From contig JAGWKL010000001.1 of NCBI GenBank assembly GCA_028865345.1, positions 63,296-127,295 on the forward strand: DNA of 64,000 nucleotides, read 5' to 3'. Below, piece by piece: positions 33,016 through 48,850 of this stretch (positions are counted from its first letter, which is position 1; each line of letters opens with the position of its first letter). Source of the stretch: Candidatus Omnitrophota bacterium. Lineage in GTDB: Bacteria > Omnitrophota > Gorgyraeia > Zapsychrales > Fredricksoniimonadaceae. The notes below the pieces were generated by a model. The model made no database searches and was not told the DNA's origin. It worked only from the letters and a program-made list of their open reading frames with translations. Made by a program: the position numbers and the translations under genes.

Positions 33016-33356
33016 GTTCCTCCGTTTTTAATTTTCAAAACAAATCTCCGAGGTCCCTTTGAAAACTCCACCTGGTCAAAACTGATGGCCATGACCGTAT
33101 AGGGCCCAAGCTGATCGCCGATCCTGACGACCCTGCCGTTGACGATGGCCATATTGTTCCCGGAGGCGTCCGTCACGATCCCTTCCAGGACCAGGTCATT
33201 CACCGATAAATCTTCATCGTAGGTGACCACCATGCCGGCCGAAGACACTAAAGGTACAAAAGGATCCCGCTTACCGTGATCATCATACACGAAATTCTGT
33301 TGGGCATATACTGAATTCGCTGATAAAAATAGGAACGCCAGGATCAATAGTCTCAT
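33012..33356 (-). CDS. pilP: PilP-like pilus assembly lipoprotein/periplasmic protein
   Basis: Signal peptide, an RDPFVPL motif, a small beta domain, and operon position. Confidence 0.55.
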   Translation of the reverse strand: MRLLILAFLFLSANSVYAQQNFVYDDHGKRDPFVPLVSSAGMVVTYDEDLSVNDLVLEGIVTDASGNNMAIVNGRVVRIGDQLGPYTVMAISFDQVEFSKGPRRFVLKIKNGGT

Positions 33357-34556: not shown

Positions 34557-35604
34557 TTGAAAGCCCCAATCCCACGGCCACTCCAAACTGTGCGGCATGG
34601 GCCCGGATGTCGCCCTCCAGGGCCGCCCCTGAAGGCAGGCCGCCCAACGGGTCCCAGATCTTCACCGGCAGCCCCAGGCCTTTTTCAAACACGCCTTCAA
34701 TGCCGCCCAGCGCAGACCCGCCCCCGGCCAGGAAAAGCTCATTGACGCGGGCGTGTTTCTCGGTCGTAAAATAATCGAGGGACAGGCGTATTTCGCTGAT
34801 CAAATTACTGATCGGCACCTCGCAGGCGTCCATGATCTGGGCCAATTTATCCTCCGGCCGGCGCTTGAGCGCCTCTGCCGCTGCGGCATCCAGGCCCAGG
34901 GCATTGGCGATCTTTTGGGTCAACTGGCTGCTGCCGATGAAAACGTCTCTCGTAAAACGCAGCGTTCCGTCCTTAAAGATCATGAGGCTGGCGGCCGACG
35001 CGCCCATGTCCAGCAGGGCCCGGGCGCCGCCCGACGGCGTTGACGCCGGCCCCAGGCGGCCGAACGCGTTGGCGGCCGCAATGGGATTAAGCGTCACGCG
35101 GTTTAATTCCAGGCCCGCTTCTTTAAACAATCTCAACCGTTCGTCCACCATCTCTTTCTTGACCGCGGAGAGCAGAACCGGCATTTTTTTGTCATTGCCT
35201 TCAGGGTCGAGAATGGTGCAATCCGTGTAAATGCTTTTAGGGTCAAAAGGGAAATATTTGTCCAATTCATAGACATAAGATTTTCTCAAGTCTTCCAGGG
35301 ACATGCGGGGAAGGTCGATAAAGCGCATCAGGGTCCCTTTGCCGGATACCGACGAGACCAGAAGCTGGTTGCTCCAATGCAGGCGTTCGACGGCCTTTTT
35401 TAAGGCTGCCGGCGCCCCCTGGGCCTCCAGAGTCTCGACGGCCCAATGGCGTATTTCACTCCCCCCGCCGGCCGCCGGGCCCAATTCCACCGCTTTGACG
35501 GCGGAGGCGCCGATATCAATGCCGATGACTGCAACAGCTGGAGGTTGGGGGATCAAACGATTGACGAACAAAAGATACTGCTCAAATAACTTCTTAAAAT
35601 CCAT
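34549..35604 (-). CDS. pilM: Type IV pilus assembly ATPase-fold protein PilM
   Basis: Actin-like/FtsA fold with VIGIDIGASAVK... 351 aa. Confidence 0.85.
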   Translation of the reverse strand: MDFKKLFEQYLLFVNRLIPQPPAVAVIGIDIGASAVKAVELGPAAGGGSEIRHWAVETLEAQGAPAALKKAVERLHWSNQLLVSSVSGKGTLMRFIDLPRMSLEDLRKSYVYELDKYFPFDPKSIYTDCTILDPEGNDKKMPVLLSAVKKEMVDERLRLFKEAGLELNRVTLNPIAAANAFGRLGPASTPSGGARALLDMGASAASLMIFKDGTLRFTRDVFIGSSQLTQKIANALGLDAAAAEALKRRPEDKLAQIMDACEVPISNLISEIRLSLDYFTTEKHARVNELFLAGGGSALGGIEGVFEKGLGLPVKIWDPLGGLPSGAALEGDIRAHAAQFGVAVGLGLSND

Positions 35605-35752: not shown

Positions 35753-36859
35753 ATGCGTAAAAACGGCCAATCCATCATCGAGTATATCTTGATTGCAATC
35801 CTGGTGATTTTAGCGATTGCATTTATGGGCACCTATGTGCTGCGTTCGGTCAACGCCCATTTCAAAATGTGGGACGAGGGCGTCCGGGATTCCGCCGAAG
35901 AGATCATCAACCAGGCCCCGATCGCCGATGTGCCTAATATTTCATTGAACTGCTCGTGCTCGCAGACCGTGGGGACCTGCGGAAGCAGCACGCCCGGCTC
36001 GCAATGCGCCGCCAATGAGAAAATAATAACCTGGAACTGCAATCCCCAGGGATGCAACGGCGCGCAGGGAAACAGCACCTGCGAACTTGACCCCAGCTGC
36101 TGTAATACGCCTGCACCCCAGGGCTGCGGCAACCATCCTCTTCCTTTCGTTCCTGCGACCAAAGGATATATAGGGACCCCGATGCCATGCCCGACAGGGC
36201 TTTCAGGCACATGTTACCAGGGGCTTGGATCCGGCAGTCCCTGCTATTACGGCCAGCAAACCTACGGCTATGCCTGTGGTTCCAATACCAGCCAGGTCTG
36301 TGTCCCGGACAATTCCTGCCCGAACCCCACATGCACGGGATTTATTCTCTTTTCGAATTCTACCACCTATTGCCCGGGCGCCACCAGCGGCCTGCTTCAA
36401 GACACGCCGAACTACTATGTGGGCAACAATTCTTCGGCTTGTTCAGGCTCTGGAAATTGCGAATTGTATTGTAATGCGCCCTATTCCGTCACCCCGGCGA
36501 ATCCGACCAATCCGACGGAAGCTTCCTGCTCCATGGAATTCAACGTAGCGGCCTCCTGTTGCGGTCCTGATGGTTATGACCCTTCATGCCAGTACAGCAC
36601 CAATAATACAAGCAACCCCACCTGTGCCAATGGCGGATGCTCATGTTGGGCATCCGGCAGCCATCAGATCACTAACAACGAAAGTTTTTCAGTCTGCCTT
36701 GACCCAACCACCAAGCTCTCTTCCGTCTATGCCCTGCCGGTCGGGTCTACGGCGACCAATACCTACAAGAGCCCTGCGTTATCCCCCACCGACGGCGGAT
36801 GCGGAGACCCGGGCCTGCCTTCCCAGACATGCAGCATCTCTGTTAATTTCGGATCGTGA
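35753..36859 (+). CDS. Cysteine-rich (~31 Cys) Ser/Thr/Asn/Gly-rich protein with a Flp-type class III (prepilin) signal peptide
   Basis: N-terminus MRKNGQSIIEYILIAILVILAIAF carries a G/xxxxEY Flp-pilin processing motif with Glu at +5. About ten N-x-S/T sequons. No match to an ordinary pilin length. Confidence 0.6.
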   Translation: MRKNGQSIIEYILIAILVILAIAFMGTYVLRSVNAHFKMWDEGVRDSAEEIINQAPIADVPNISLNCSCSQTVGTCGSSTPGSQCAANEKIITWNCNPQGCNGAQGNSTCELDPSCCNTPAPQGCGNHPLPFVPATKGYIGTPMPCPTGLSGTCYQGLGSGSPCYYGQQTYGYACGSNTSQVCVPDNSCPNPTCTGFILFSNSTTYCPGATSGLLQDTPNYYVGNNSSACSGSGNCELYCNAPYSVTPANPTNPTEASCSMEFNVAASCCGPDGYDPSCQYSTNNTSNPTCANGGCSCWASGSHQITNNESFSVCLDPTTKLSSVYALPVGSTATNTYKSPALSPTDGGCGDPGLPSQTCSISVNFGS

Positions 36860-37920
36860 TGGAGCCCATGAAACACCCCCTTGTCGCCGGCGTTGACGAT
36901 CTTTCATTAGACCAAAGGAAGTTTGATCCATCCCCCCTGGACATCGAACGCATCTGCCGCTTCTTTGGTTTGGGAAAACTCAGGCACTTCGAAAAAGAAA
37001 AAAACATCGTGGTTTCCCATTCCAATTTTTTCGCCTTTGTCCGCACAAACCAGGGGGGCTACGCGCTGAAATTCTACCCGCCGCAGGCGGCCCGGGGCAT
37101 CAGCGTTGAATATGCCCTCAACCGCCTCCTGACCGGGCATCGTTTTGCCACACCTTTAATGCACGCGGGAAAAGACGGCCGTGCCTGGGTTTGCGGCTGC
37201 GGCCGTCTGGCAGCCTGTTATTCTTATATCGACGCAGCGCCGGCATGGCAAAAGATCGGGCAAAAAAAGACCATCCGCGCCATCAATGCCTCGATGTTGT
37301 TGCTGAAGCGTATTTTATCCGCCGCCGGAGAGTCCCTTCCGGTGCAAAAACAGAAAACCTTCGGCGCACAGACCCATGACCTCCTGCGCCTTTCCCGCGA
37401 CCTGCGGCCTTATGACCAACAAGAAACGATCGAGGCCTGCCTCCTGGCGGCCTGCCGCGCCTATCAGCGGCATGAAGGGCTGTTTGTCCGCCGGAGGCTC
37501 CATAACAACGCGGGTTTGACCAACTTTCTCGTCGACAGAAAAACCGTTTACACCCTTGACCTGGGCCACGTGCGGGAAGATTACGCCATAAGCGATCTGG
37601 CCGGCATGGTCATTTCCTGCGTTTTCTTTGACACGCCGCCCCAAACAATCCGGGCCATCATTGAAGACTATTTTGCCCAACATCAAATGACACAGGACAG
37701 CAGCGCGGCCCTTGCCGTACTTGTCCAGACCGGGCTTATCAAAGAATATCTGAAAAACATCCAACGGGAAAAATCACTTGGATCTTCCCTGTATCCGCCC
37801 GGACTTCTGGAAGCCTACAGGTCTCTGCTCGCCGAACGCAAGAAATCCATCAGGACTGTTTTAAAGAAAGGGCTTCTGAAAGGGACGGGGCGCCGGGGAC
37901 GGGAAACAGCGCTGATTTGA
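36859..37920 (+). CDS. Protein kinase-like fold phosphotransferase (APH/ChoK/HSK-II-like)
   Basis: Catalytic-loop-like HNNAGLTNFLVD and a DLG (DFG-like) motif. Start ATG overlaps the upstream stop (TGATG), indicating coupling. Confidence 0.5.
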   Translation: MEPMKHPLVAGVDDLSLDQRKFDPSPLDIERICRFFGLGKLRHFEKEKNIVVSHSNFFAFVRTNQGGYALKFYPPQAARGISVEYALNRLLTGHRFATPLMHAGKDGRAWVCGCGRLAACYSYIDAAPAWQKIGQKKTIRAINASMLLLKRILSAAGESLPVQKQKTFGAQTHDLLRLSRDLRPYDQQETIEACLLAACRAYQRHEGLFVRRRLHNNAGLTNFLVDRKTVYTLDLGHVREDYAISDLAGMVISCVFFDTPPQTIRAIIEDYFAQHQMTQDSSAALAVLVQTGLIKEYLKNIQREKSLGSSLYPPGLLEAYRSLLAERKKSIRTVLKKGLLKGTGRRGRETALI

Positions 37921-38959
37921 GTGTCGAGCGGATCATGGTTGTCATGGGGACTTCCGATAAATAGCTGGGGCACCGGCTGCAGGGAACATCGCTGCCGGGC
38001 TTGATCAATCCCAGCACAGTCATTTTCATGTCCAGGTATCGCTTGCTTTTCATGACCGCTTCAAGCCCGTCCTGGAACACATTGCCCGTATCCCCGAAAT
38101 AATTGGCGCAGCATCCGGTCATTTTCCCGTCCCAGTTGATTTGCGGGGCGGTCCACAACTGATAGCAGGACAAATACAGCGACAGGCCGTATTGATCGCT
38201 GTATTCCTGCCTTGTGGCGCTGTTGGACCCGCTCAGGTAACGGATCAATGCCTTGTTTTTGACCGGCGCATACTCCGTCCTTGAATTGAGCTTGATCTTG
38301 AAGACCATCTTCAGTTCCCGCGCCAAGGTCATGGCCTTCAGCACCACATGTTCATTATGCGCAAACGGGATGAATTGCCACTCCAGTTCAGGCAGGGCGC
38401 TGTCATATTTTTCTTTATAAAAGTTAAGGGTTTTGATGTTGTTGATGACCTGCGTGAAACTCCCCCCCACCCGGTATTTCGCATAGCTCTCTTCATCCCC
38501 TCCGTCGATGGCGACGTTGAGGTAACGGAAACGGTATTTGACCAGGTCTTCGCACATCGCAGGGCTTACCCTGTTGAAATTCACGCCCGAACGGGCGGTC
38601 AGGGTGACCCCTTGCTCGCAGGCGTCCTTGATGATGGCCCCCAGCTCCGGGTTAAGGAATATCTCGCCTGAATGGGACAATTCTATGGTTTTGACCGACG
38701 GGTTGGCGCGGATGAAAGCCGCAAAGTCCTTGGCGCGCAAATATCCCCATCCCAGCACCCCGTTCCTTTTTTCCGGACGGGTGTGGGGGTCGCACACAGG
38801 ACAGGCCAATTGGCAGGCGCTGCAGGCGCTCAATCGGACAAAGGTAGGCGGAACATAGCTTAACAGGTCGGCTTTCGTGATCATCTGATTAAAGTGTAAA
38901 CCATAACGGCGCCCCTGTAAAGCGGCTTTGCTAAAGACGCTTGAAATGGTAAAAACCAT
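37850..38959 (-). CDS. Radical SAM protein (start approximate)
   Basis: CQLACPVC (CX3CX2C) motif plus a C-terminal Cys cluster. The track ORF N-terminal extension overlaps the upstream gene and was discarded. Confidence 0.7.
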   Translation of the reverse strand: MVFTISSVFSKAALQGRRYGLHFNQMITKADLLSYVPPTFVRLSACSACQLACPVCDPHTRPEKRNGVLGWGYLRAKDFAAFIRANPSVKTIELSHSGEIFLNPELGAIIKDACEQGVTLTARSGVNFNRVSPAMCEDLVKYRFRYLNVAIDGGDEESYAKYRVGGSFTQVINNIKTLNFYKEKYDSALPELEWQFIPFAHNEHVVLKAMTLARELKMVFKIKLNSRTEYAPVKNKALIRYLSGSNSATRQEYSDQYGLSLYLSCYQLWTAPQINWDGKMTGCCANYFGDTGNVFQDGLEAVMKSKRYLDMKMTVLGLIKPGSDVPCSRCPSYLSEVPMTTMIRSTLKSALFPVPGAPSLSEALSLKQS

Positions 38960-40403
38960 TTCCCCCGTTTGAAACTTTATAATCCTGAAAGAACCCTTTG
39001 AGTTGAATTCTGGGAGGCAGCTGGATCCCGGAAGGCGGTTGAATTCCGTCAGGCATTTGGTTTTTGTAGACCAAAAATACCGCGTGCACCCGCGGTTTAA
39101 GGAGACCGTTTTGGGCCAGGAACTCCGCCGGGTTTGTCCCCTCCCGTATATTAATGACCCTGCGCGTATCCCCCCTATAATAGTAGCTGAAATCCTGAGG
39201 ATCGGCATAGGACACAATGAGATCGTTGGGACCTGCCGCCCGCATTAATTCTTTTGCGGTCGAGCGCCAGTCCTGCTGGGGAAAGCGGGCGATTCCGGTG
39301 AAATACAAATAAATATTAAAAATGGCGATCATAAGCATCGCCGCCAGCATCACGCTGCGCAAGGGGCCGGAGACGGCGCCCAACCGGCTGCTGATCATCA
39401 GGATAAGCGGCACCTGCAAAAATCCGACATACCGCGCCTCAAGATAAACGTGGACACAGGTATAATCGAACAGAAAATAGGCCAGAAGCGCCACGGCAGC
39501 CCATAAAAAGACGGCCCGGTCATCGGCTCTCCGGGGACTATCAACCAGGAAAAACACCAGCAAAAAGACATATAAAAAACAATTGATCTCCCAGAGCCCC
39601 AGGTGGAAAGAATATTGGGCCCAATTTTCATGCGTCCAAATTTCCAGGCCGCTGCCTATGATGAAGAAAAAAGAGCTTAAAGCAAAATGCAGGTAATCAA
39701 AGGCGGCCGTGGGGCGGATCAGCCCCCAGGTTTCTTTGGGGGAACACAAAAAAAGGACCACCCACGGAATACAAAAACCAAGTATGATGAGCTGCCCGGT
39801 GAACCATGGCCTGCGCCTGGCCCCGGTCAATATAAAAATGATGTTTTGCGCCGCCAGAAACAAAAACCCCGAATACATCGTATAGCAGCATAATATGGAT
39901 GTTGCGATATACCATCGATGCGGGGCCTTCCCCTGATTCCTGAGGAAACGGAAAAAGAACAAAAACGATAACGCCTCCAGCAGCCAGAAGGACGCGTACA
40001 TCTTGGCGTACTGGGCATAATGGACGGCAAACGGCGAGAAAGCCAGCAGCGCCGCGGCGATAAGCCCGGCATTTTTATTAAAAAGTTCCTTGCCCAGTTT
40101 ATAAATGACAATGATGGTCAGGCCGGAAAAAAGCGCCGAAGGAAACCTCAGCGCCCATTCGCTCGTGCCGAAAAGGCGCGTCCATAAATGGAGAAACGCA
40201 TAATAAAGCGGCGGAAACGAGGAAGCTTTCAGCAGGACTACGGTCTCCCAAAAAGAATGATTGATCCTCACCGCGGTGGTCAGCTCATCATCGCCCAGGC
40301 TGGGCGCCCCCAGATGATAAAACCGGAGCGCAAGCCCCGCGGTCAGCAGGGCCGCCATGACCCAAAAATCCCCCGGCATCTTCAAAAACCGCCGTTGCAG
40401 CAT
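38931..40403 (-). CDS. GT-C fold glycosyltransferase, family 39/83-like (PMT_2 / ArnT-like) membrane protein
   Basis: More than 10 TM helices. A first-loop DE motif (GDDELTT) and an FPPLYY block are typical of PMT/ArnT-type lipid-sugar-dependent transferases. Confidence 0.8.
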   Translation of the reverse strand: MLQRRFLKMPGDFWVMAALLTAGLALRFYHLGAPSLGDDELTTAVRINHSFWETVVLLKASSFPPLYYAFLHLWTRLFGTSEWALRFPSALFSGLTIIVIYKLGKELFNKNAGLIAAALLAFSPFAVHYAQYAKMYASFWLLEALSFLFFFRFLRNQGKAPHRWYIATSILCCYTMYSGFLFLAAQNIIFILTGARRRPWFTGQLIILGFCIPWVVLFLCSPKETWGLIRPTAAFDYLHFALSSFFFIIGSGLEIWTHENWAQYSFHLGLWEINCFLYVFLLVFFLVDSPRRADDRAVFLWAAVALLAYFLFDYTCVHVYLEARYVGFLQVPLILMISSRLGAVSGPLRSVMLAAMLMIAIFNIYLYFTGIARFPQQDWRSTAKELMRAAGPNDLIVSYADPQDFSYYYRGDTRRVINIREGTNPAEFLAQNGLLKPRVHAVFLVYKNQMPDGIQPPSGIQLPPRIQLKGFFQDYKVSNGGNGFYHFKRL

Positions 40404-40412
40404 GTCGCCTTT

Positions 40413-41135
40413 CTAATGAAACCTCAACTCCGATACAAAACGGCCCGGATCGATCTTCTTCATAAGCCCCTTCTCCTGTCTCATGGACAACAGAAGAAAG
40501 ACATCCCTGGCCAGCCGGTTGAGCCTTCCCATAAAATGGTAGTGCGTTTTCCCGAATTTTCTTTTCCGGCAGGCGATGTCGACCTCGCAAAGATTGATCT
40601 TTTTTTCCCTGGCCAGCAAAGGCAAAAACCGGAACGCCTCGCCCCTGTCTTTGATATCATTGACGATCTTGGACCGGTAGGCCCTGAAGGAGGAATTGAT
40701 ATCATAATACCCCAACCCGAACAACAGGCAGATCAGCCTCTTGGTGATCTTGCGCCTTTCTTTCTTGCCATTCACCACGTCGTAACCCATGTTGATTTTT
40801 TCCACCAGTTTCAAAATGTCCTGCGGGTCATGTTGGAGATCGCCGTCCATGGTGATGATCACCTCCGAACGGACAAAATTCATCCCGACCAAAAGCCCCA
40901 TGGTCTGGCCGAAATTCTTTTTAAGTTTGACCACATTGACGGACTTGTCCCGCTGGTGGATGGCGCATAACTCCCCATAAGAGTTGTCTTTGCTGCCGTC
41001 TTCCACGAAGATGATTTCATATCCCCCCCGCAGCGATTTCAGGCTGTCTTTCAGGCGCTCATAAAGGATGCCTATGTTCTGCTCTTCGTTGTTGACAGGA
41101 ATGACGATGGACAAATCCATGGCTTTTTGCGTCAC
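40413..41135 (-). CDS. GT2 polyprenyl-phosphate sugar synthase-like glycosyltransferase (DPM1/ArnC/GtrB-like)
   Basis: LSIVIPVNNEE...FVEDGSKD...MDGDLQHDP, the DXD-type GT-A motifs of Dpm1-like enzymes. Confidence 0.8.
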   Translation of the reverse strand: MTQKAMDLSIVIPVNNEEQNIGILYERLKDSLKSLRGGYEIIFVEDGSKDNSYGELCAIHQRDKSVNVVKLKKNFGQTMGLLVGMNFVRSEVIITMDGDLQHDPQDILKLVEKINMGYDVVNGKKERRKITKRLICLLFGLGYYDINSSFRAYRSKIVNDIKDRGEAFRFLPLLAREKKINLCEVDIACRKRKFGKTHYHFMGRLNRLARDVFLLLSMRQEKGLMKKIDPGRFVSELRFH

Positions 41136-42001
41136 AACTGCCCGTAGCTCGACAGCGAGATGCCGTATTGCTTGAACACTCCCCGGGCCCCCAAACAGCG
41201 CAATACCTCCATCTCCCGTTGTCTCGCGGCATTAATATAATATTTCTGCCGGTTAAGCACAGGGTCTTGCCATTCCTCATCGATATAGCCGGGATGGCAC
41301 ATCAATTCCGTGGTCCCCTTTTTTAAACCGGACAATACCCTTATGCAGCCTTCCAGCGTCATACGTCCTGTGACGGACGCCCCGTAAAAATAGTCCGGGG
41401 ACTTGACATGATAGGTCTCCAGCATCCGCCGGTTGATCATGGAGCAACAGGACAACAACAGCGCCGTGTAGGATTGCTTTTTAAATACCCTCCCCAGGCC
41501 GGCTCTTTGCCCCAGATAAGGAATTTCATTGATGCTGCGTATTTTTAAAATGCCGTATTCCCCGGCGATTGTCAAGAGGACTTTAAACAAAGGACTGAGG
41601 ATGTGGACATGCTTTTCACTGTCTAAATGCGTGATCCGGACCCCCCGGGAGAGGGCCTTTTCAATTTGGGCCCTGCATTCAACGGCAAATTCCTCCAAAC
41701 ACCTTTTGCCCGTATAACACAGCGCGGCCAGACGGTTGACATTCCCGTGGAAAAATCCCCCCTCGCAAAGGCTGCCGACGCCTTCGACGGGAGAAACAGG
41801 CCTGCCCCGCAGCACATTGATGTGAAGACCGACCCCCAAACCCGGATTGTCCCTGATTGATCTGACGGCGTCCTCAAAACCGGGCATATTCACCATCAAT
41901 GACGCGCTGGTCAATACGCCGCTGTTAAACAACTCTATTATTCCCTTATTAATGCCGCGGCTGAGGCCGAAATCGTCGGCATTGATAATGAGCTTCTTCA
42001 T
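41132..42001 (-). CDS. YdjC/ChbG-family carbohydrate deacetylase
   Basis: N-terminus MKKLIINADDFG, a YdjC hallmark. Internal start chosen. Confidence 0.8.
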   Translation of the reverse strand: MKKLIINADDFGLSRGINKGIIELFNSGVLTSASLMVNMPGFEDAVRSIRDNPGLGVGLHINVLRGRPVSPVEGVGSLCEGGFFHGNVNRLAALCYTGKRCLEEFAVECRAQIEKALSRGVRITHLDSEKHVHILSPLFKVLLTIAGEYGILKIRSINEIPYLGQRAGLGRVFKKQSYTALLLSCCSMINRRMLETYHVKSPDYFYGASVTGRMTLEGCIRVLSGLKKGTTELMCHPGYIDEEWQDPVLNRQKYYINAARQREMEVLRCLGARGVFKQYGISLSSYGQL

Positions 42002-42723
42002 AAACGGCTTTTTACTTTTCGGCGGCCATAGGTTGTTATCAACATACGCCGCATGACGGCAGGGACCTGGATCTCGCTTTTGAAGGTCCGGTGCGGGATG
42101 CCCCGTGCAATGGCCAATGCACGCAAAAGTTTCTTGTCTTTCTTCAAGGCCGCGGGCACCTCCTGCGCCAATGCCAGCATGGCTTCTGATAAGAACGGGA
42201 AAATAAATTTGCACCCGTGAACCTCGGCCACGCGCAAATGAAGGGCCTTTTGCCGCCTGGCGTCCTGTAGGCGCTCCTTAAGCCTTTGCGGCCTTACTTG
42301 CAAAGCCTCATTACCAAACCACTGATCAGAACCCATGCCTGAAATCAACACGTTCCCCGCAGTCTTGGGATCGTATTTCTTGAGGGCCGCATACACGACC
42401 CCCAGGTCCAGGTCCGCCATAGGCTGCTCCGTCAAAGCGGCAAGCCCCCCAAAAGCGGACAAGAATTCCGCAGGTTTCACATGAAGGATGCAATGTTTGA
42501 TCCCTGCCTGCCGGGCGGACTCAGCGGCCCCGGCAACGGTGAGAGGGTTAAAATCGTCAAATTGCACCGTCACCGCCGTCACTTGGGCGCCGCAGCGCCG
42601 GGCCATCAACGCCATCAGCATGGAATCGAACCCGCCGCTGAACATGATCGCCCGGCGGGTGCCGGCCATCTTTCCCATGGCCGACTCCAGTGTCCGCTCC
42701 ACCAAAAAAGGAAGATCCCTCAT
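41998..42723 (-). CDS. PP-loop superfamily ATP pyrophosphatase (asparagine synthetase C-domain / QueC / LarE-like)
   Basis: A SGGFDS PP-loop close to the N-terminus. No C-terminal Cys cluster, so probably not QueC proper. Confidence 0.6.
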   Translation of the reverse strand: MRDLPFLVERTLESAMGKMAGTRRAIMFSGGFDSMLMALMARRCGAQVTAVTVQFDDFNPLTVAGAAESARQAGIKHCILHVKPAEFLSAFGGLAALTEQPMADLDLGVVYAALKKYDPKTAGNVLISGMGSDQWFGNEALQVRPQRLKERLQDARRQKALHLRVAEVHGCKFIFPFLSEAMLALAQEVPAALKKDKKLLRALAIARGIPHRTFKSEIQVPAVMRRMLITTYGRRKVKSRL

Positions 42724-43697
42724 GCCTTCACGGCCCTGTTGTATATTTCCATTTTCTCGCCGACCATCTTATTGCGGGCCGTCCAGCGGCAATTAATGCA
42801 CTCATGATAGTTTCTAAAGGGGGCTTCCCCCTTTAGGGCCGAATTACGCGTACGCGTATACAGTTCCGATTGCCAGATGTCTTTGAATGATGACTTAAAC
42901 ACATTGCCCATCGATGAGCGGTGCGTAAAAATACAAATATTCACATCGCCATTAAGGCGTATCGCGCTGAAAAACCATCCGGTATAACACGCAGGCCATT
43001 CTCCTTCCAACTCGGTTTTCTCCACCTGGTCGGGCAATATCATATGACGGTTATGGTCGCTGGGCTGAAATCCTTTGATCTGGACCTTGTCCGCTCCGAG
43101 CTTGCGGACCAGGGCCTGCGTCCTTGGCAAACTGGCTTCATTTAAACGGTTTAAAACGAAAACCACTTCAATGCAAAAATTCGGGTTGAATTGCGGCCTG
43201 AGCCTGGCCAGTTCCCTTATATTTCTTATGACCTTCATAAAAAGGTCTTTGCCCACCAAGGCGCGGTAACTTTCCCGGTCCGCTTCCCCCAGATTGATCA
43301 CAATGCGGTCTGCCCGCAAAATATCGCGGCAGCGTTCGATGGGGAACGTTGCGTTCGAATACACAGTGACCGAAAAGGACCGTTCAAGATGGCATAAAAG
43401 GTCATAAAAGCGGGGATGGAATATCGGGTCCCCCACGCCGGAAAGGTGGATCTTGTCAACCTGGAGATCGGCGCAGTCCTGCACCAATCTCTCGATCAAA
43501 TCATACGGGAGATGGTTCTTGCCCGAAGGGCGGATGGCGCTGCCCGGGCCGTAATACCAGCAATACTGGCATTCGAGATTGCACAGGTCCGTCAACTGTA
43601 ACTGGACGGTGGCGGGGCCGATCAGGGCGCAGCCGGATTCAATGCTTTTAAGGCGCAGGAACAATCTTCTCTGTCGCTCACGCAGGTCCAGGATCAT
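42720..43697 (-). CDS. Radical SAM protein
   Basis: CNLECQYCWYY (CX3CX2C followed by aromatics). ATGA overlaps on both sides. Confidence 0.8.
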   Translation of the reverse strand: MILDLRERQRRLFLRLKSIESGCALIGPATVQLQLTDLCNLECQYCWYYGPGSAIRPSGKNHLPYDLIERLVQDCADLQVDKIHLSGVGDPIFHPRFYDLLCHLERSFSVTVYSNATFPIERCRDILRADRIVINLGEADRESYRALVGKDLFMKVIRNIRELARLRPQFNPNFCIEVVFVLNRLNEASLPRTQALVRKLGADKVQIKGFQPSDHNRHMILPDQVEKTELEGEWPACYTGWFFSAIRLNGDVNICIFTHRSSMGNVFKSSFKDIWQSELYTRTRNSALKGEAPFRNYHECINCRWTARNKMVGEKMEIYNRAVKA

Positions 43698-44839
43698 ACG
43701 CCCCCGGCCGCCGCACGGCGGACTTTCTCATCCAGCATTTTATTGATCGGCACATAACTGCAGTACCTGCATTCCTTCCATTTGGATGAGCAGGTATGTA
43801 TGCCCCGGGCCGCTTCCTTAAGCGTATCGTGCAGAAAATCATTATCGAACCAGATGTCTTTGAACCGCCGTTCGTTGACATTGCCCGCCACACAGACCCC
43901 GACGTTGTCACAGGGCGCCACCACCCGCCCTTTCTCGTCGATATTGGCATAGAACCATCCCACATGGCAATGGATGCTGCCGCCGGTCGTATCATAAAAC
44001 AACAGGCGGTCATTGTGCATCGGCGAACGCGACAGGGAATCGACGTTTCTCAATACCTGCCCGCTTTGAAGAATGTGGTGCAGGTGTTTAAGGTCGTGCC
44101 TGAAGCCGTACGGGGTCCGCAGAGCTTCGTCGACGGTATGGAATAAAGACGCCAGTCCCTCCTGGGAAAAAACCAGGTCCTTCATCTCCTGGGTCGCCTT
44201 AAAAAAACGGACGACGACCTTGTCTATCCGGCGCTGATGGGCCATGTTCAAAAAGGCGCCCAATTCCTGATAATTGTGGTCATAGACGACGAATGACAGC
44301 ACGATCTGGGGTTTGCCGCGTTTGGAGCGCATGGCCAAAAGCAAGTCCAGGTTATGCAGCACGCGTTCCATGGAGGTGTGCTTGCCATGGACGCGTTTGA
44401 ACGATTCTTCGGTCATGGCGGAAAAATTCACGGTCAGCTGGTCGGCAAAACACAGGCCCGGCAGATGGTCCGCCGCAAAGCCCAGATGGCTGTAGGCGAT
44501 AAGCCGCATGCCCAGCTCTTTGACCTTGCAGAAAGCCCTCTCCCAATACGGATAAAGCGTGACTTCTCCGCCCTCAAAATTGATCTCGTCGACGCCGATC
44601 TCCCGGCAGTCTTCCAGCACCCCTTCGAGCACCTCATAATCCAGCAATTTCCTTTGCGGCTGGTCTTTGACCAGAGGAGAAAAATACCAGCAGAACTCGC
44701 ATTTGTAGTTGCAGGAATTGATGATGTGGATGTTGACGGACTTGGGGCCGATCAACGGCTTGCCGAGGATGGAACTCCTGATGCGCAAGGCGTCCCTGAC
44801 CCCGGTATCTGTGATGCTTGACATGCGGCTCTCAGCCAT
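43694..44839 (-). CDS. Radical SAM protein with C-terminal Cys-rich (SPASM-like) region
   Basis: CNYKCEFCWYF, plus a C-terminal ...CHVGW...PCDNVGVC...CSSKWKECRYC. It is a tandem paralog of 42720-43697. Confidence 0.8.
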   Translation of the reverse strand: MAESRMSSITDTGVRDALRIRSSILGKPLIGPKSVNIHIINSCNYKCEFCWYFSPLVKDQPQRKLLDYEVLEGVLEDCREIGVDEINFEGGEVTLYPYWERAFCKVKELGMRLIAYSHLGFAADHLPGLCFADQLTVNFSAMTEESFKRVHGKHTSMERVLHNLDLLLAMRSKRGKPQIVLSFVVYDHNYQELGAFLNMAHQRRIDKVVVRFFKATQEMKDLVFSQEGLASLFHTVDEALRTPYGFRHDLKHLHHILQSGQVLRNVDSLSRSPMHNDRLLFYDTTGGSIHCHVGWFYANIDEKGRVVAPCDNVGVCVAGNVNERRFKDIWFDNDFLHDTLKEAARGIHTCSSKWKECRYCSYVPINKMLDEKVRRAAAGGV

Positions 44840-45593
44840 GCCCCTGCCTCTTTTTGGATCCTGATAAAATTTCAGAAAACAACATGACCCTCCAGCCTTT
44901 CTTTGCTTTTAATGCCGCGACATAATCCAAAAAACGTATCAATTCCCTGCGCCGCAGCGCTCCCCTGAAGTCCTCATGGTGCGTCAATACGCCGGACAAT
45001 GCCTGGCGGTCGACCTGCCTGGTCAGGCCGGCCAACACCTGCGCGGCCCGGCAAATGCTCTTGCGGCCCTGATCGTAGCGGGTGAAGGAAATCAAGGCCG
45101 GTATTTCGATCCATGCCCTTCTCCTCCCCGGCCGCCTGCTCCCGGCCGAAAAGATCTTGAAGCCCTCCCCGGAAAGCGCTTGCAACGTACGTTCATCATA
45201 CCCGTGATACGGCGGCACGAAAGCCGGCGTAAAAAGATCGCCGAAGGCCCGCCGCATGCTTTCCAGGCCCCGCCTGATGTCTTCCCGCTGATTTTTTAAA
45301 GAACGCCCGGGCCCGAATTCAAATTTCGTGCCGGCATCGACGCTGTGATTGTCATGCGCCCATCCGTGCTGGACAATGTCCAGCATGAAGGGTGTTTTCT
45401 CCTTGGCGCGGCGCAAAAATCCCACCAGCCCCCGGTCCATCCTGCCCGGGATGACCGCATGCACGACCGGAATGCCCCTATCCATGGCTGAATCAAAAAA
45501 GTAACGGAATTCGTCATCCAGCCTCCACACATCATCATTACGAATAAAAAGCCGTGCACTCATTATATAATCAAGTATACTATTTTCTACCAA
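44832..45593 (-). CDS. CE4-family polysaccharide deacetylase-like protein (NodB fold)
   Basis: IRNDDV (DD motif) and HGWAH (HxxxH). Confidence 0.55.
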   Translation of the reverse strand: MVENSILDYIMSARLFIRNDDVWRLDDEFRYFFDSAMDRGIPVVHAVIPGRMDRGLVGFLRRAKEKTPFMLDIVQHGWAHDNHSVDAGTKFEFGPGRSLKNQREDIRRGLESMRRAFGDLFTPAFVPPYHGYDERTLQALSGEGFKIFSAGSRRPGRRRAWIEIPALISFTRYDQGRKSICRAAQVLAGLTRQVDRQALSGVLTHHEDFRGALRRRELIRFLDYVAALKAKKGWRVMLFSEILSGSKKRQGHG

Positions 45594-45596: not shown

Positions 45597-46787
45597 ATGC
45601 GCGTCTTATTCCACTACACCCACAAGCAAACCCTCGGGCACACCACCCGCAGCATCTCTTTTGTAACAGCGCTTTGCCGCCTTAAAGCCGATGTCCTCGT
45701 ATTGCAAGGGGGCCTTGTGCAGCCTTTTGTCCGTTTCCCCTCCGGCTGCCGGGTCATGGATATCCCTTTTCCTTTTGACGCACGCACCAGTTTTCAGGCC
45801 CACGCTGTCCCTGTATCCGCAAGCCGACGCGCTCAATTTATCCTCAAAGCGGCCGCTGAATTCTGCCCTGATGTTTTCATCACCGAATTTTTCCCTTTCG
45901 GCAGATCGTCCTATTTGCCGGAACTGCTGCCTCTGTTGCGCTACCTGCGTAAAAAAGGTACCCGTATCATGGCCAGCATCGGATATCCTTTGATCATCGA
46001 CCTGGATCGTTTCAGCGACCCGAAATTCGCCGCCCTGCAAAAAGCCGTATTTGCTTTCTACGACAACTTTCTCATCCATACGCCGCAAGAGCTTGAAACC
46101 CCGTATATCCAAAAAACCATCCCCTCCGAGCCCCTGGCCCGTTCCTATGCCGCACTGATGAAGGACCTGAAGGCCCGGATCGACTATACCGGCTATATCT
46201 TCCCGGAAAAAATCATCACCGGCGATTCCTTGCGGCCGAATTCCACCGCCCCTTCCATCGTCGTCAGCCGCGGGGGCGGCGCCGTGTATCCGAAACTCAT
46301 GACCACCGCCATCGAAGCCCAGCGTCTCCTCGGGGGCGTCCATACGGTGATCGCCTGCGGTCCGGCCACGACCGCGGCGGAAAAAGCCTTGTTCACCTCC
46401 TGCCTCGATCCCCAGGACAACGGCCGGGTGGTCCTTTCGGACCTTCTGGCGGACCTTGACGACCATCTGCGCACGGCAAGGGTTTCGGTGAGCCTGTGCG
46501 GCTACAATACCTGCGTCCAATTGATGCGTTACGGGACGCCCTCGGTGATCGTCCCCTATCACAACACACTTGCCTCCAACCCGACCAATGACCAGATGGC
46601 CCGCTCCCGGTTGCTTGCCGAACGCTTCTCTGGTATCATCCTTGATTACGATACGATGACGCCGCAAAGTTTGTCCGACGCTATCAAAGAACAAATGTCC
46701 AAACCCCGCCCTGCGCCCGCCCCCCGGGACTGGTTCAACGGGGCTGAAACGGCAGCGCGTCTTGTGCTTGAAGGTAGGGCAAATTAA
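45597..46787 (+). CDS. GT-B fold glycosyltransferase (GT1/GT28-like), paralog A
   Basis: Two-Rossmann pattern and the shared block FITEFFP. It is a paralog of 61504-62721. The antisense 362-aa track ORF inside it was rejected. Confidence 0.6.
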   Translation: MRVLFHYTHKQTLGHTTRSISFVTALCRLKADVLVLQGGLVQPFVRFPSGCRVMDIPFPFDARTSFQAHAVPVSASRRAQFILKAAAEFCPDVFITEFFPFGRSSYLPELLPLLRYLRKKGTRIMASIGYPLIIDLDRFSDPKFAALQKAVFAFYDNFLIHTPQELETPYIQKTIPSEPLARSYAALMKDLKARIDYTGYIFPEKIITGDSLRPNSTAPSIVVSRGGGAVYPKLMTTAIEAQRLLGGVHTVIACGPATTAAEKALFTSCLDPQDNGRVVLSDLLADLDDHLRTARVSVSLCGYNTCVQLMRYGTPSVIVPYHNTLASNPTNDQMARSRLLAERFSGIILDYDTMTPQSLSDAIKEQMSKPRPAPAPRDWFNGAETAARLVLEGRAN

Positions 46788-47751
46788 ATTTCTTCAAAAA
46801 CCCATGATAGGCAAAGCACCCGGGGCAATGGCCCTGGGCCGCATCTTCCGCATGCCGTTGACGGACCAGATCCAGTTCCTGCGGCAATTGTCCCTGATCT
46901 CCCAGTTTCCCGGCAGGCTCCATGTAGAGGCAAGGAAAAACATTCCGGCGCGAATTAATGAAAAGGGATTTGGCCGGGGTTTCGCAGGCGCGGATGCATT
47001 TGCGGCCGCCGGCCAAAAGCACCATCATGGCCTTGACCAGGCGGTTGTCAACCCCCGCGTAATTGTCCTTTAACATGGCCTCCACCTGTCCGCGGACATC
47101 TTCAACCATGGCAGGCGTCAGGGAGGCCAGTTGGCCTGCCTGCGGCATCTCGTGGCGGTGATAGTAATCATCGACGCCGGATTCCATGATCTTGGGTGAA
47201 AACCGCGCTTTAAAGCGCCGCGCCATACGGTAAACATCGCCTAACTCGGCGTAATTCAGGCGGTTGATGGTGAATTTAAATTCCAGGATGATGTCCTTGC
47301 CGAAATGGGCGGCCAGCCACTCGATGGTTTTTAAGGATTTCCCAAAAGCCCCCGGCCCCCGCAGGCGGTCATGCACCTCTTGTCTTCCGTCGATGCTGAT
47401 CCCCATGTGCATCCCGCTCAAATCCTTGCCGTAGGCGGTCATCACGCGGCGTACGCCTTCGAAATACGCCGCGTTGCTGTAAACGCCGAAGCCCGAAATC
47501 TGGCCGCGTTGGCGGAAGAACGACATCGCTTTCAATACGCGCCCGCAATTCCTGTTGAGAAAGGGTTCTCCTCCGGTGATGGACACAAAATAAACCTCAT
47601 AACGCGCAAGCAATTGGCGCATCATGCGCACGACCAATGACGAGGACATCTCATGGCGGTCTTTTTCCGCCCATATCCCGCAGTGCTGGCAATGGAGCTG
47701 GCAGTGATTGGTGATTTCGATGGTTATATCGTTAAGCAGAGGTTTTTTCAT
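46735..47751 (-). CDS. Radical SAM protein with SPASM-like C-terminus
   Basis: CQLHCQHC, plus a C-terminal ...FPCLY...GHCPGCFAYHG. Confidence 0.8.
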   Translation of the reverse strand: MKKPLLNDITIEITNHCQLHCQHCGIWAEKDRHEMSSSLVVRMMRQLLARYEVYFVSITGGEPFLNRNCGRVLKAMSFFRQRGQISGFGVYSNAAYFEGVRRVMTAYGKDLSGMHMGISIDGRQEVHDRLRGPGAFGKSLKTIEWLAAHFGKDIILEFKFTINRLNYAELGDVYRMARRFKARFSPKIMESGVDDYYHRHEMPQAGQLASLTPAMVEDVRGQVEAMLKDNYAGVDNRLVKAMMVLLAGGRKCIRACETPAKSLFINSRRNVFPCLYMEPAGKLGDQGQLPQELDLVRQRHAEDAAQGHCPGCFAYHGFLKKFNLPYLQAQDALPFQPR

Positions 47752-48850
47752 GTTCTACAAAAGACCTGCTGGTTTCAATGACCTGCCGGGCCTTGTCCTC
47801 GCTCATGAATGAATACAAAGGAAGATGCAGGGCCGAGGCCGCATACCACGCGCTGACCGGAAAGCCCTCCTGCTGATTTCCCTTAAATACCGCCATGCGA
47901 TGCAGCGGTATGTACGCCCGCTGGGCCATGATGCCCCGGCTTTCCAGGAAATTAAAAAACTCGTCCCTGCAATCGCAGCACACCACGAAATTCTGCGCCA
48001 CGCTTTGGGTTTGCGGGGCGTCTTTGAAGATCGTCAGTCCCTCGATTGTGCCGATCTGCCGCTCATATAAGGCCTTGATCTTATGGCGGGAGGCAATGAT
48101 CTCTTTCAGGCGGGAAAATTTGACCCTCAGGGCCACCAGGTCCATCAGGGACATAGGCGCAAACCGCTGCCCCAGCTTGACAAGCTCACCGGTGTCACGC
48201 CAGTCTTCCATCCAGCGCCGGATGCGGTTGAGTTTGGAGGCGTCAGCCGTGATCATGCCCCCTCCGCCGCCGCAGGACGAGAGGGGTTTGTAGTAAGAAA
48301 AGGAGAATACGGCCATATCACCGAAGGAACCCAGCATGCGGCCTTTGTACCTGGAGCTTTCCGCCTGGCACACGTCTTCGATAAAAACGATGTTCTTCTC
48401 CCGGCAAAATTTTCCGATCCGCTCTACGTCGCACGGCCGGCCGAACATATGGGCGGCAATGACCGCCCTGGTCTTCTTGGTCACGGCCGCTTCCACGAGA
48501 CCCGGGTCCAACTGAAGGTCTTCGGCGCGCGCATCCACGGCCACCGGTGTGGCCCCGCAATAACAAACGGCCAGCGCCACGGCCTGGTAGGTCAAATCAG
48601 GGACAATCACCTCGTCGCCGGGCCCCACCCCGCAGGCCAGCAGGGCCATTTTCAAGGCATCGCTCCCGGAGTTGACGGCCAGCGCATGCTTGACCCCGAT
48701 ATACCGCGCAAATTCATTTTCAAAATCTTGCACCATGGGCTTGATATCATTCAGCCCGCTCATGGCTTTAAGGGCACGGTCCATTTCAGCCGCATACTCG
48801 CGGCTCAAGGCCTGCTCCACCAAAAGACTTTCATATCTTACGGCTGCCAT
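47732..48850 (-). CDS. DegT/DnrJ/EryC1/StrS-family PLP-dependent sugar aminotransferase
   Basis: NSGSDAL block and an SFSYYKPL lysine (PLP) block typical of the DegT family. Confidence 0.85.
   Translation of the reverse strand: MAAVRYESLLVEQALSREYAAEMDRALKAMSGLNDIKPMVQDFENEFARYIGVKHALAVNSGSDALKMALLACGVGPGDEVIVPDLTYQAVALAVCYCGATPVAVDARAEDLQLDPGLVEAAVTKKTRAVIAAHMFGRPCDVERIGKFCREKNIVFIEDVCQAESSRYKGRMLGSFGDMAVFSFSYYKPLSSCGGGGGMITADASKLNRIRRWMEDWRDTGELVKLGQRFAPMSLMDLVALRVKFSRLKEIIASRHKIKALYERQIGTIEGLTIFKDAPQTQSVAQNFVVCCDCRDEFFNFLESRGIMAQRAYIPLHRMAVFKGNQQEGFPVSAWYAASALHLPLYSFMSEDKARQVIETSRSFVEHEKTSA

Follow-up and report, generated by a model that had tools for sequence, protein, structure and literature searches.

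A putative lipid-carrier glycosylation module within a pilus and radical SAM gene island of Omnitrophota

Why should genes for a polyprenyl-phosphate sugar synthase, a GT-C membrane glycosyltransferase and two deacetylases be packed together in the vicinity of type IV pilus genes and a large set of radical S-adenosylmethionine (SAM) enzymes? The question is raised by positions 38931-45593 of a 64,000-nucleotide stretch of Candidatus Omnitrophota DNA (assembly GCA_028865345.1, contig JAGWKL010000001.1, positions 63,296 to 127,295), in the following called the window, where tightly packed genes all lie on the minus strand. Their arrangement is not due to chance, because orthologues of the GT-C protein (38-63% identity) are accompanied by homologues of these module genes in twelve or more loci of other metagenome-assembled genomes (MAGs) and metagenomes. 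The functional unit far exceeds this segment: the module is embedded in an island of about 28 kb (about 35.7-64 kb), so far found only in Omnitrophota-type MAGs, flanked by pilMNOPQ at one end and, at the other, by an A24 prepilin peptidase together with a Hxs-like peptide of 89 amino acids (aa). Our preferred reading, to which we assign a probability of about 0.5, is that 38931-45593 represents the delivery core of a lipid-carrier glycosylation pathway in this pilus island, with two Flp-like proteins as the likely acceptors.

Enzymes of the module

Protein families were assigned with the hidden Markov models (HMMs) of Pfam and NCBIfam, using gathering or curated equivalog scores as cut-offs, and gene neighbourhoods were compared by tblastn searches with the window proteins in loci retrieved from the surroundings of GT-C orthologues (labelled L001 etc.). 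The initial annotation had claimed genes for a GT-C transferase, a GT2, a YdjC, a PP-loop, a CE4-like and a DegT protein, all of which exist on the minus strand at the positions given for them; the following list adds the two radical SAM genes of the same segment.

38931-40403, minus strand: GT-C fold membrane glycosyltransferase (PMT_2, PF13231), 490 aa
40413-41135, minus strand: soluble GT2 of the polyprenyl-phosphate sugar synthase type, 240 aa (Glycos_transf_2, E 1.5e-23)
41132-42001 (open reading frame to 42214), minus strand: YdjC-family carbohydrate deacetylase (PF04794)
41998-42723, minus strand: asparagine-synthase-like PP-loop ATP pyrophosphatase (PF00733, E 1e-15)
42720-43697, minus strand: rSAM2, radical SAM/SPASM enzyme (Radical_SAM and SPASM; 63-70% identity in L001, L004, L025 and L045)
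43694-44839, minus strand: rSAM3, radical SAM/SPASM enzyme (Radical_SAM and SPASM; 58-78% identity in at least eight related loci)
44832-45593, minus strand: DUF2334 protein of the CE4-like deacetylase superfamily (PF10096)
47732-48850, minus strand: DegT/DnrJ/EryC1 sugar aminotransferase (PF01041, E 4e-81)

No module protein reaches an NCBIfam equivalog cut-off, and therefore none is an orthologue of a named enzyme. By its sequence the GT2 protein belongs to the polyprenyl-phosphate glycosyltransferase group, with a decreasing affinity to ArnC, GtrB and DPMS. Its whole catalytic domain aligns with the solved structures of these three enzymes (ArnC 9hwj, E 1.3e-29; GtrB 5ekp, E 7.7e-25; DPMS 5mlz, E 5.6e-15), and the best NCBIfam matches are ArnC (120 bits, below the equivalog cut-off of 529 for NF007986) and PgfS (106 bits), followed by much weaker ones to PpgS, AglJ and other GT2 families. 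A DxD-type motif, DGDLQHDP (MDGDLQHDP), can be read from the sequence. The alignment ends at residue 213 of 240, compared with 225 of 322 in ArnC, where the membrane hairpins begin, and no transmembrane segment was found in the protein (maximum 19-residue hydropathy 1.22).

The GT-C protein matches PF13231 far above the cut-off (E 5.9e-19, 69.3 bits; cut-off 26.1), its second Pfam match at E<=0.01 being a weak one to STT3, and PF13231 is present in all 31 close orthologues. About 31 close relatives (32-54% identity, E<1e-50) are set off by a sharp drop in score from the generic PMT_2 proteins below them. The AlphaFold2 (AF2) model (pLDDT 79, pTM 0.81) comprises a multi-helix membrane domain and a small C-terminal alpha/beta domain, and a Foldseek search of the PDB ranked ArnT first (E 2.7e-8, TM-score 0.59; 13-14% identity in the structure alignments), ahead of STT3 subunits, DPY19 and ALG12, with Pmt4 at rank 22. 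No ArnT family of NCBIfam was matched at E<=0.001, the test for GT83, and a profile of 22 orthologues retrieved no ArnT at E<=1 from the PDB sequences, but only spurious matches to V-ATPase subunit e. The GT39 markers PF02366 (PMT) and PMT_4TMC were not matched at E<=0.01, and the 490-aa model contains no MIR domain. Because of the Foldseek ranking and the lack of any ArnT or PMT match by sequence, the protein is classified as a GT-C_A enzyme of the PMT_2 family, whose clade would be neither ArnT nor PMT in terms of sequence. The initial annotation had called it GT39-like and proposed an HMM assignment to GT39 or GT83: the GT-C fold and the PMT_2 match stand, the GT39 label is unproven, and neither the PMT (PF02366) nor the ArnT models were matched. 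Among the orthologues E40 is invariant and D39 is at least 90% conserved (L-x-D-D-E); both reside at the start of helix 38-47, following helix 11-28 (TM1), a modelled position that fits the catalytic loop of GT-C enzymes, i.e. the first extracytoplasmic loop, presumably on the periplasmic side.

The YdjC protein is a clear member of PF04794 (E 1.3e-61, 209 bits; cut-off 29.7) and its best NCBIfam scores are those for HpnK (170.3 bits, under the cut-off of 232.6 for the equivalog TIGR03473) and ChbG (151 bits). Its motifs DDFG and H-x-D-S-x-x-H-x-H (HLDSEKHVH) align to 7vi8, a solved ChbG-type deacetylase. The true start at 42001 (MKKLIINADDFG) was set by alignment and gives an overlap of four bases with the stop end of the PP-loop gene. 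The longer open reading frame of 360 aa (41132-42214) was rejected as a gene model, its 72 additional codons overlapping the neighbouring gene and being absent from the orthologue. YdjC enzymes that act on a carrier-linked N-acetylhexosamine (HexNAc) are known from NaxD (PMC11279074) and LgmC (PMC4993483), and by analogy, given the gene context between the GT2 and the rest of the module, a carrier-linked HexNAc deacetylation of this type may be expected for the window enzyme.

The initial annotation had postulated an ArnD-like de-N-acylation. The idea as such is reasonable, but its two candidate enzymes have to be treated separately. For the YdjC gene, NaxD and LgmC would be better precedents than ArnD. 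The ArnD-like element is the DUF2334 protein, which is the deacetylase conserved across relatives (present in eight related GT-C loci). It lies above the cut-off for PF10096 (E 1.7e-12, 47.8 bits; cut-off 26) and just under that for Polysacc_deac_1 (PF01522; 22.9 bits, cut-off 23.1), and the proposed designation as CE4 deacetylase is therefore valid at the superfamily level only. The best NCBIfam matches of the DegT aminotransferase are of the LegC, PseC and ArnB type, all under the cut-offs. In the PP-loop protein the SGGFDS motif is conserved and the glutaminase domain is absent. Compared with the orthologues of L001 and L004 it is shorter by about 55 residues at the N-terminus and about 25 at the C-terminus, with SGGFDS intact, and it may be a shortened or decaying copy.

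Recurrence of the module in related loci

The comparison of related loci requires four further entries upstream of the module.

45597-46787, plus strand: GT28a, GT28-like (MurG C-terminal domain type) glycosyltransferase (PF04101, E 1.2e-8)
46735-47751, minus strand: rSAM4, radical SAM enzyme (66-76% identity in relatives)
48838-49929 and 49854-50897, minus strand: rSAM5 and rSAM6, paralogous radical SAM enzymes (Pfam)
50851-52011, minus strand: PaaK/F390-synthetase-like adenylate-forming ligase (DVU_1553-type ligase 68 bits, PaaK 61 bits, both under cut-off)

A conserved core with identities of 56-84% extends from the PaaK-like gene over rSAM6, rSAM5, DegT, rSAM4, the inverted GT28a, DUF2334, rSAM3 and rSAM2 to the PP-loop gene, and it is accompanied by a GT2 gene and by one or two for GT-C proteins in L001, L004/L005, L007, L009, L019-L025, L027 and L045. 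GT2 and GT-C genes are direct neighbours, or have a few genes between them, in L001, L002, L004, L007, L009, L010, L019, L020, L021, L025, L045 and L046. The pair is thus kept in most related loci that are long enough to show it, including L046 with the most divergent orthologue, and together with the ArnC, GtrB and DPMS matches this bears out the coupling of a Dpm1/ArnC-like GT2 to the GT-C protein that the initial annotation had proposed. Since the GT2 is of the polyprenyl-phosphate type and the pair is conserved, their adjacency fits the periplasmic transfer of a lipid-carrier sugar. One example of rearrangement is L045, where GT2, YdjC, a methyltransferase and GT-C lie together at another position of the same island, which indicates that the trio of GT2, YdjC and GT-C moves as a unit. 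The GT2 and YdjC proteins of L045 show about 29% identity or none detectable, far below the conservation of the radical SAM genes.

The layout of the window is reproduced in JBGGHH010000253.1 by L017 and L001 together. The order starts with two pilB genes, pilC, an HxsD-like and an HxsB-like gene, the peptide, the Cys-rich protein, a second GT28-like gene (GT28b) and a radical SAM gene with the A24 peptidase, and it continues with radical SAM genes, the module, an APH-fold gene, the Flp-like protein and pilMNOPQ. The flank of APH, Flp-like and pilM genes that follows the module is also found in L020 and L025. In L008, the genes for the peptide, the Cys-rich protein, GT28b, a radical SAM enzyme, a LAB_N small membrane protein and two GT-C proteins are contiguous just downstream of PilB-like ATPases, and on L010, a 3-kb contig of the same MAG, GT-C, GT2 and PP-loop genes abut the A24 peptidase. 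The N-terminal half of a split second GT-C gene ends L008 (11528-12138) and its C-terminal half starts L010 (1-919). The two contigs probably join through this gene, which would give a compact system in the order peptide, Cys-rich protein, GT28b, radical SAM, LAB_N, GT-C, GT-C, GT2, PP-loop and A24 peptidase. The LAB_N protein and a 122-aa neighbour that accompanies it in relatives were not found in the window by tblastn.

Two loci add enzymes with a bearing on the chemistry. Between the GT-C and the APH/Flp-like genes of L025 (11286-18005) there are two epimerase/dehydratases of the short-chain dehydrogenase/reductase (SDR) type, a UDP-glucose/GDP-mannose dehydrogenase (Ugd-like), a second GT2 and an arylsulfotransferase; with these genes L025 possesses the first steps, missing from the window, of an Arn-like route to an amino-pentose or uronate. 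L046 (4976-9190) encodes a 1404-aa fusion of GT2, B12-binding radical SAM and GT4 domains, adjoining the GT2 and GT-C pair and two genes of the PF01663 phosphodiesterase family; this fusion is a Rosetta-stone hint that the B12-type radical SAM enzymes of the neighbourhood act on glycans. The Ugd/SDR genes and the fusion are the reason why we see, as a hint, carbohydrate chemistry in the radical SAM and early steps.

GT28a is inserted on the plus strand into the minus-strand run and occurs with 63-74% identity and the same inverted orientation in L001, L004, L007, L009, L019, L021, L025 and L045; no match to PDB sequences was obtained. Its start codon (45597) and that of DUF2334 (45593, minus strand) stand back-to-back with 3 bp between them, an inversion kept in eight related loci, and each promoter must therefore sit inside the other gene. 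The 3' end of GT28a overlaps rSAM4 by 53 bp. A minus-strand open reading frame at 45606-46694 was discarded in favour of the conserved plus-strand gene.

Pilus genes, Flp-like proteins and radical SAM enzymes of the island

The genes bracketing the island comprise the candidate acceptors and the machinery for their processing.

31600-35604, minus strand: pilM-pilN-pilO-(pilP)-pilQ-like type IV pilus assembly and secretin genes (PilM_2, E 8e-36; PilO; Secretin, E 6e-49)
35753-36859 (open reading frame from TTG at 35705; 368/384 aa), plus strand: Flp-like prepilin-type protein with class III signal and Cys/Ser/Thr/Asn-rich domain
59584-60483, plus strand: A24 prepilin peptidase of the TadV/FlaK type (PF01478, 28.9 bits; cut-off 26.5)
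62788-63576, minus strand: secreted Cys-rich protein, 262 aa (no Pfam or NCBIfam match)
63551-63820, minus strand: Hxs-like/Flp-like peptide, 89 aa (KDEDG/FVSKE..., C-terminal H/N/C/Y motif)
63801-64000, minus strand: HxsB-like radical SAM gene, truncated at the window edge to its 3' end (last 68 codons)

The Flp-like protein probably starts at ATG 35753, and its N-terminus MRKNG/QSIIEYILIAILVILAIAFMG (G/QSIIEY) shows the Flp-type class III signal G/xxxxEY, read by eye against the known consensus, followed by a hydrophobic helix (19-residue hydropathy 2.83) that is the strongest such segment among the island proteins examined. A short basic leader and the nearby A24 peptidase complete the features of a Flp-type prepilin. 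The subsequent domain of about 330 aa contains 31 Cys, 78 Ser and Thr and 32 Asn residues with 10 N-x-S/T sequons. The N-terminus is conserved in L001 and L020 and an orthologue is present in L025, so that the protein stands beside the module in three to four genomes with that flank visible; the pilMNOPQ flank is shared by L001, L020 and L025. The S/T/N-rich Flp-like acceptor candidate of the initial annotation is accordingly a real gene with a class III signal that is conserved beside the module. What had been named there as speaking against such an acceptor, an ArnT-type GT-C protein at this position in genomes without the Cys-rich protein, was not encountered: no ArnT model is matched and the visible flanks carry the Flp-like protein. 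The A24 peptidase is devoid of a methyltransferase domain, and its Asp motifs TFTDLxNKKIYN and LWxGGDAKLF are invariant in four orthologues.

The 89-aa peptide at the opposite end has at least 190 homologues with 62-84% identity, and all named ones belong to Omnitrophica. Its core KDEDG/FVSKETILKVGLST.AALG is almost invariant in the alignment and resembles the leader of Caulobacter PilA (FLKDESG/ATAIEY). The tail H..N...C..H-N-[VI]-[ST]..H-[TS]-S-Y, with Tyr at the C-terminus, is also conserved. The 262-aa Cys-rich protein is always encoded directly downstream of the peptide (41-48% identity in L008 and L016-L018). In relatives, HxsD-like and near-threshold HxsB-like radical SAM genes precede the peptide, and the HxsB-like fragment of the window matches residues 405-472 of its L016 counterpart with 74% identity; the L016 protein scores 360 bits against HxsB (TIGR03978, cut-off 370). 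In L018 (10001-16142) two copies of the peptide gene, the second with its own HxsD-like/HxsB-like pair, are separated by an A24 peptidase gene and a DDE transposase.

This arrangement recalls the HXS antiphage system HxsD-HxsB-HxsC-HxsA, 99.7% of whose described representatives stem from Pseudomonadota (Nat Commun 2026, PMC13128918, the source of the canonical features used here). Both have HxsD-like and HxsB-like genes ahead of a small periplasm-destined protein with His-x-Ser/Asn/Thr motifs. They differ in the substrate, which here is an 89-aa Flp-like peptide without a peptidoglycan-binding domain, in the host, Omnitrophota, and in the linkage to pilus and glycosylation genes. HxsB (360/370 bits), HxsD (28.9/50) and HxsA3 (the peptide with a weak 23.7/65) all fall short of their cut-offs, no HxsC gene is adjacent and the gene order differs. 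PADLOC returned generic viperin-like radical SAM similarity and nothing more, and a known defence system is therefore unsupported. The peptide locus is a Hxs-type system with a Flp-like substrate, outside the Pseudomonadota in which HXS defence has been described. The C-terminal parts of both Flp-like proteins would be exposed to the periplasm, the side that a GT-C active site would face.

The remaining entries of the island are the following.

36856-37920, plus strand: APH-fold phosphotransferase-like protein (PF01636, E 1.6e-9)
37850-38920 (listed open reading frame to 39217), minus strand: rSAM1, radical SAM/SPASM enzyme (Radical_SAM and SPASM)
52053-57595, minus strand: rSAM7 (SPASM), a B12-type radical SAM enzyme, an ApbA/PanE-like reductase, a second B12-type radical SAM enzyme and a methyltransferase-like protein
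57621-59387, minus strand: halogenase/monooxygenase-like protein dependent on flavin adenine dinucleotide (FAD), 588 aa (Trp_halogenase, E 4.6e-5)
60525-61556, plus strand: rSAM10, radical SAM enzyme (best NCBIfam match PqqE, 68 bits)
61504-62721, minus strand: GT28b, GT28-like glycosyltransferase (weak PF04101 match)

Taken as a whole, the island encodes 11 radical SAM genes, the PaaK-like ligase and two GT28-like transferases, and relatives extend its peptide-side flank with pilB and pilC. The initial annotation, correct as to the genes of the module, had missed this pilus and Hxs-like setting with its 11 radical SAM genes. The minus-strand run reaches upstream to 59387, overlapping or abutting genes spanning about 21 kb. 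Beyond the module it includes four radical SAM genes and another two of the B12 type (one of them HpnJ-like), the PaaK-like ligase, the ApbA/PanE-like reductase, the methyltransferase-like protein and the FAD-dependent protein. The 11 radical SAM genes lie within about 26 kb (37850-64000), four with SPASM, two of the B12 type and one the HxsB-like fragment, a density that is unusually high for a locus not annotated as one for ribosomally synthesized and post-translationally modified peptides (RiPPs).

The rSAM6 family comprises about 100 members, all named ones from Omnitrophica/ota, with CxxxCxxC as the sole invariant motif; the SPASM cysteines are absent and no N-terminal recognition (RRE) domain was detected. 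Searches of PDB sequences and with AF2/Foldseek gave generic matches of the anSME, CteB and viperin type, and a peptide and a sugar substrate are therefore not distinguishable. rSAM1 is 79% identical to a 336-aa orthologue in L001; its 455-aa open reading frame (to 39217) was rejected as a gene model, the N-terminal part overlapping the GT-C gene and being missing in orthologues. The genes at 52053-57595 have orthologues in L016, L017 and L045, and the B12-type enzyme at 53119-54312 is HpnJ-like (102 bits, under cut-off). For the FAD-dependent protein the best NCBIfam match is the halogenase CmlS (62 bits), with weak ones to QhpG, LodB and GoxB, which are protein-cofactor maturases; hydroxylation or halogenation of an aromatic residue in a pilin-like protein would be a possible function. 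rSAM10 (62-78% identity in L016-L018 and L045) invariably forms a pair with the A24 peptidase, and GT28b lies downstream of the peptide and Cys-rich genes in L008, L016, L017, L018 and L045 (54-63% identity), with one extra gene in between in L017 and L045. The APH gene and the Flp-like gene share 4 bases, at the start of the former and the stop of the latter, and the APH gene is conserved with the module in L001, L009, L019, L020 and L025.

The rest of the window is of housekeeping nature (RNase G, L21, Obg, proBA, S1, TyrRS, two tRNAs and a probable rpoBC/EF region). Scans for tRNAs and Rfam families of the window found the two housekeeping tRNAs near 19 kb and nothing else, and a promoter and terminator scan of 35-47 kb gave matches at chance level, so that operons were not delimited.

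Proposed pathway and competing explanations

From family assignments, motifs and synteny we infer a sugar, an order of steps, roles for the radical SAM enzymes and an acceptor. The soluble ArnC/GtrB-type GT2 would charge polyprenyl phosphate at the cytoplasmic face with a nucleotide-activated sugar, probably an amino sugar bearing an N-acyl group, whereupon YdjC, or in relatives without it the DUF2334/CE4-like enzyme, would remove the N-acyl group on the carrier, which is a reasonable reading of the two deacetylases. DegT, the PP-loop protein as an amide ligase, the PaaK-like ligase, GT28a and some of the radical SAM enzymes may tailor the sugar or its precursor. A flippase would then translocate the carrier-linked sugar; a LAB_N gene adjoins GT-C in L008 and L002, without an equivalent in the window. 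Finally, the PMT_2 GT-C enzyme would transfer the sugar on the periplasmic side, most likely to the Flp-like protein (35753-36859) and/or the tail of the Hxs-like peptide (63551-63820), while these are presumably anchored in the inner membrane with periplasmic C-termini, before A24 cleavage and assembly by PilBCMNOPQ.

Several known systems resemble parts of this scheme. In the Arn pathway (Ugd, ArnA, ArnB, ArnC, ArnD, ArnE/F, ArnT), ArnB corresponds to DegT and ArnC to GT2, DUF2334 takes the place of ArnD and a GT-C enzyme is present in both, with Ugd-like and SDR decarboxylase-like genes added in L025 alone. The difference is that neither a formyltransferase nor an ArnA-like decarboxylase nor ArnE/F was found with Pfam and NCBIfam among the genes from 30 to 64 kb, an absence from the window that the initial annotation had rightly noted together with that of a flippase, that all NCBIfam Arn models stay far under their cut-offs, and that PP-loop, PaaK-like, GT28-like and many radical SAM enzymes are present in addition. 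The restriction of YdjC to a few clusters and the early-step Ugd/SDR genes of L025 had escaped that annotation. O-mannosylation by Ppm1/Pmt in actinobacteria, by Dpm1/PMT in eukaryotes and the Pgf system of Streptococcus mutans are set apart by the window GT-C protein, which lacks PF02366/PMT_4TMC and MIR, and the deacetylases and the aminotransferase argue for an amino sugar rather than the mannose of Ppm1/Pmt. The arabinosylation of type IV pilin by TfpW of Pseudomonas aeruginosa, a GT-C enzyme that uses a lipid-linked sugar (bioRxiv 10.1101/2020.04.19.049825), is by its description similar in the periplasmic GT-C, the polyprenyl-phosphate sugar made in the cytoplasm and the location of the genes beside the pilin; in some hosts TfpW has a GtrA-like small membrane partner, at a place where L008 and L002 have the LAB_N protein. 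The pilins here are Flp-like and not T4a, and the sugar pathway of TfpW (DprE1/E2) is unrelated. A GT2, a YdjC protein with HpnK as best match (170 bits) and a B12-type radical SAM enzyme with HpnJ as best match (102 bits) in one locus are reminiscent of the hopanoid enzymes HpnI, HpnK and HpnJ. This interpretation was rejected: the GT2 is ArnC-like and not HpnI-like, the scores are under the equivalog cut-offs and a GT-C gene is present. No squalene-hopene cyclase or other hpn genes were found in the window.

A number of points weigh against pilins as acceptors of a lipid-carrier sugar. YdjC is limited to three clusters (window, L001 and L045), no flippase is encoded in the window, and the GT2 has no C-terminal membrane hairpin like those of ArnC and GtrB. 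The Flp-like assignment stays under the Pfam threshold (Flp_Fap PF04964, cut-off 32.2), with 14.6 bits (E 0.029) for the N-terminus of the window protein, 19.4 (E 9e-4) in L001 and 20.8 (E 3e-4) in L025, and the 89-aa peptide is without any Pfam match. Both the acceptor and the sugar identity are inferred, and the radical SAM enzymes could act on peptides, not sugars. In a single MAG (L002/L003/L006), the one clear exception in context, GT2, the LAB_N small membrane protein and the GT-C orthologue (L002/L006) lie in a Wzm/Wzt polysaccharide cluster with GT4/GT2 genes and without pilus genes within 10 kb. Above all, the trio of GT2, YdjC and GT-C has exactly the composition of lipid A hexosamine systems, and the best Foldseek match is ArnT.

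The last two points lead to the main alternative, according to which the trio makes a polyprenyl-phosphate hexosamine for lipid A phosphates, the lipopolysaccharide (LPS) core or another periplasmic polysaccharide, the position beside pilus genes reflecting co-regulated surface structures. In Francisella FlmF2/NaxD/FlmK (PMC11279074) and Bordetella LgmA/LgmC/LgmB (PMC4993483), which attach galactosamine or glucosamine to lipid A, HexNAc is linked to undecaprenyl phosphate by an ArnC-like GT2, deacetylated on the carrier to hexosamine by a member of the YdjC superfamily and finally transferred in the periplasm by an ArnT-like GT-C; ArnC/D/T and Rhizobium Rgt are further parallels. The same three genes are contiguous in the window and L001 and nearly so in L045, ArnC is the nearest relative of the GT2, and the Ugd and SDR genes of L025 follow an Arn-like logic. 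Unlike the Flm and Lgm systems, however, the window has a GT-C protein that no NCBIfam ArnT model matches and whose family profile retrieves no ArnT from the PDB sequences, most orthologous clusters do without YdjC, and the genes reside in a pilus and radical SAM island instead of an LPS context. Except for L002/L006 and the divergent L046, all loci that can be judged place the GT-C gene in this island and not near lpx or O-antigen genes, and we consider an envelope glycan as the acceptor unlikely.

If the island were instead a Hxs-type RiPP factory, most of its enzymes would modify the 89-aa peptide, the glycosyltransferases would glycosylate its product as MftF does with mycofactocin, and the lipid-carrier route would be minor or serve export. 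The HxsD and near-threshold HxsB genes ahead of the peptide in relatives, with the HxsB-like 3' end kept in the window, its invariant H, N, C and C-terminal Tyr residues, weak best matches of several radical SAM enzymes to peptide maturases, the weak QhpG/LodB-like matches of the FAD enzyme and the published maturation of a periplasmic protein by radical SAM enzymes in HXS (PMC13128918) are compatible with it. The idea is nevertheless distinctly improbable in view of the carbohydrate signatures, which comprise the periplasmic-site GT-C, the ArnC-type GT2, YdjC, DUF2334 and DegT and, in relatives, Ugd/SDR genes and the fusion of glycosyltransferase and radical SAM domains; the features of rSAM6, the score of the peptide against HxsA3 and the absence of the canonical HxsD-B-C-A order and of a peptidoglycan-binding domain point in the same direction. 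Least probable of all, indeed very unlikely, is that glycosylation, radical SAM and pilus genes belong to independent pathways that are neighbours by chance in a compact genome. The undelimited operons would permit this, and the far lower conservation of GT2 and YdjC than of the radical SAM genes in L045 suggests different evolutionary histories, but the neighbourhood recurs across MAGs with 40-80% identical proteins, one-strand genes overlap or abut for about 21 kb and the families are confined to the same phylum wherever named. A chance neighbourhood is unlikely because the linkage is repeated, and rearranged yet retained.

Beyond the preferred reading of the module as a delivery core for glycosylation of the Flp-like proteins, the whole island from 35.7 to 64 kb may be a dedicated maturation factory for Omnitrophota-specific type IV filament subunits, in which Hxs-type and other radical SAM enzymes would act first on the Flp-like pilins, and periplasmic glycosylation with a radical-SAM-tailored amino sugar would follow by a lipid-carrier route resembling Arn and NaxD. 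This wider proposal is tentative and open to doubt; if true, the fibre would rank among the pilus fibres with the heaviest modification yet proposed, perhaps with a metal-binding or redox-active, peptide-derived C-terminal motif (H..N..C..H.N.T.H.SY). The module itself is a variant of known lipid-carrier systems and the surrounding island is more novel. The module is best seen as one arm of a pilus-modification island that is conserved and confined to this phylum, with a pilin as a plausible acceptor. For glycobiology, the island provides a soluble ArnC-type synthase, a GT-C clade that by sequence stands apart from ArnT and PMT, and candidate anaerobic (radical SAM) sugar-tailoring steps, and maturation of the Hxs type, recently reported as a phage defence of Proteobacteria, would be extended to another substrate and another phylum. 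Omnitrophota are uncultured, ultra-small bacteria, many of them thought to be predatory or host-dependent, for which type IV pili have been proposed to serve attachment (PMC10066038). In the island, genes for pilus assembly are linked with those for two unusual Flp-like subunits, for lipid-carrier transfer of an amino sugar and for 11 radical SAM enzymes, a combination that points to a surface fibre with a chemistry unlike that of any characterised pilus.

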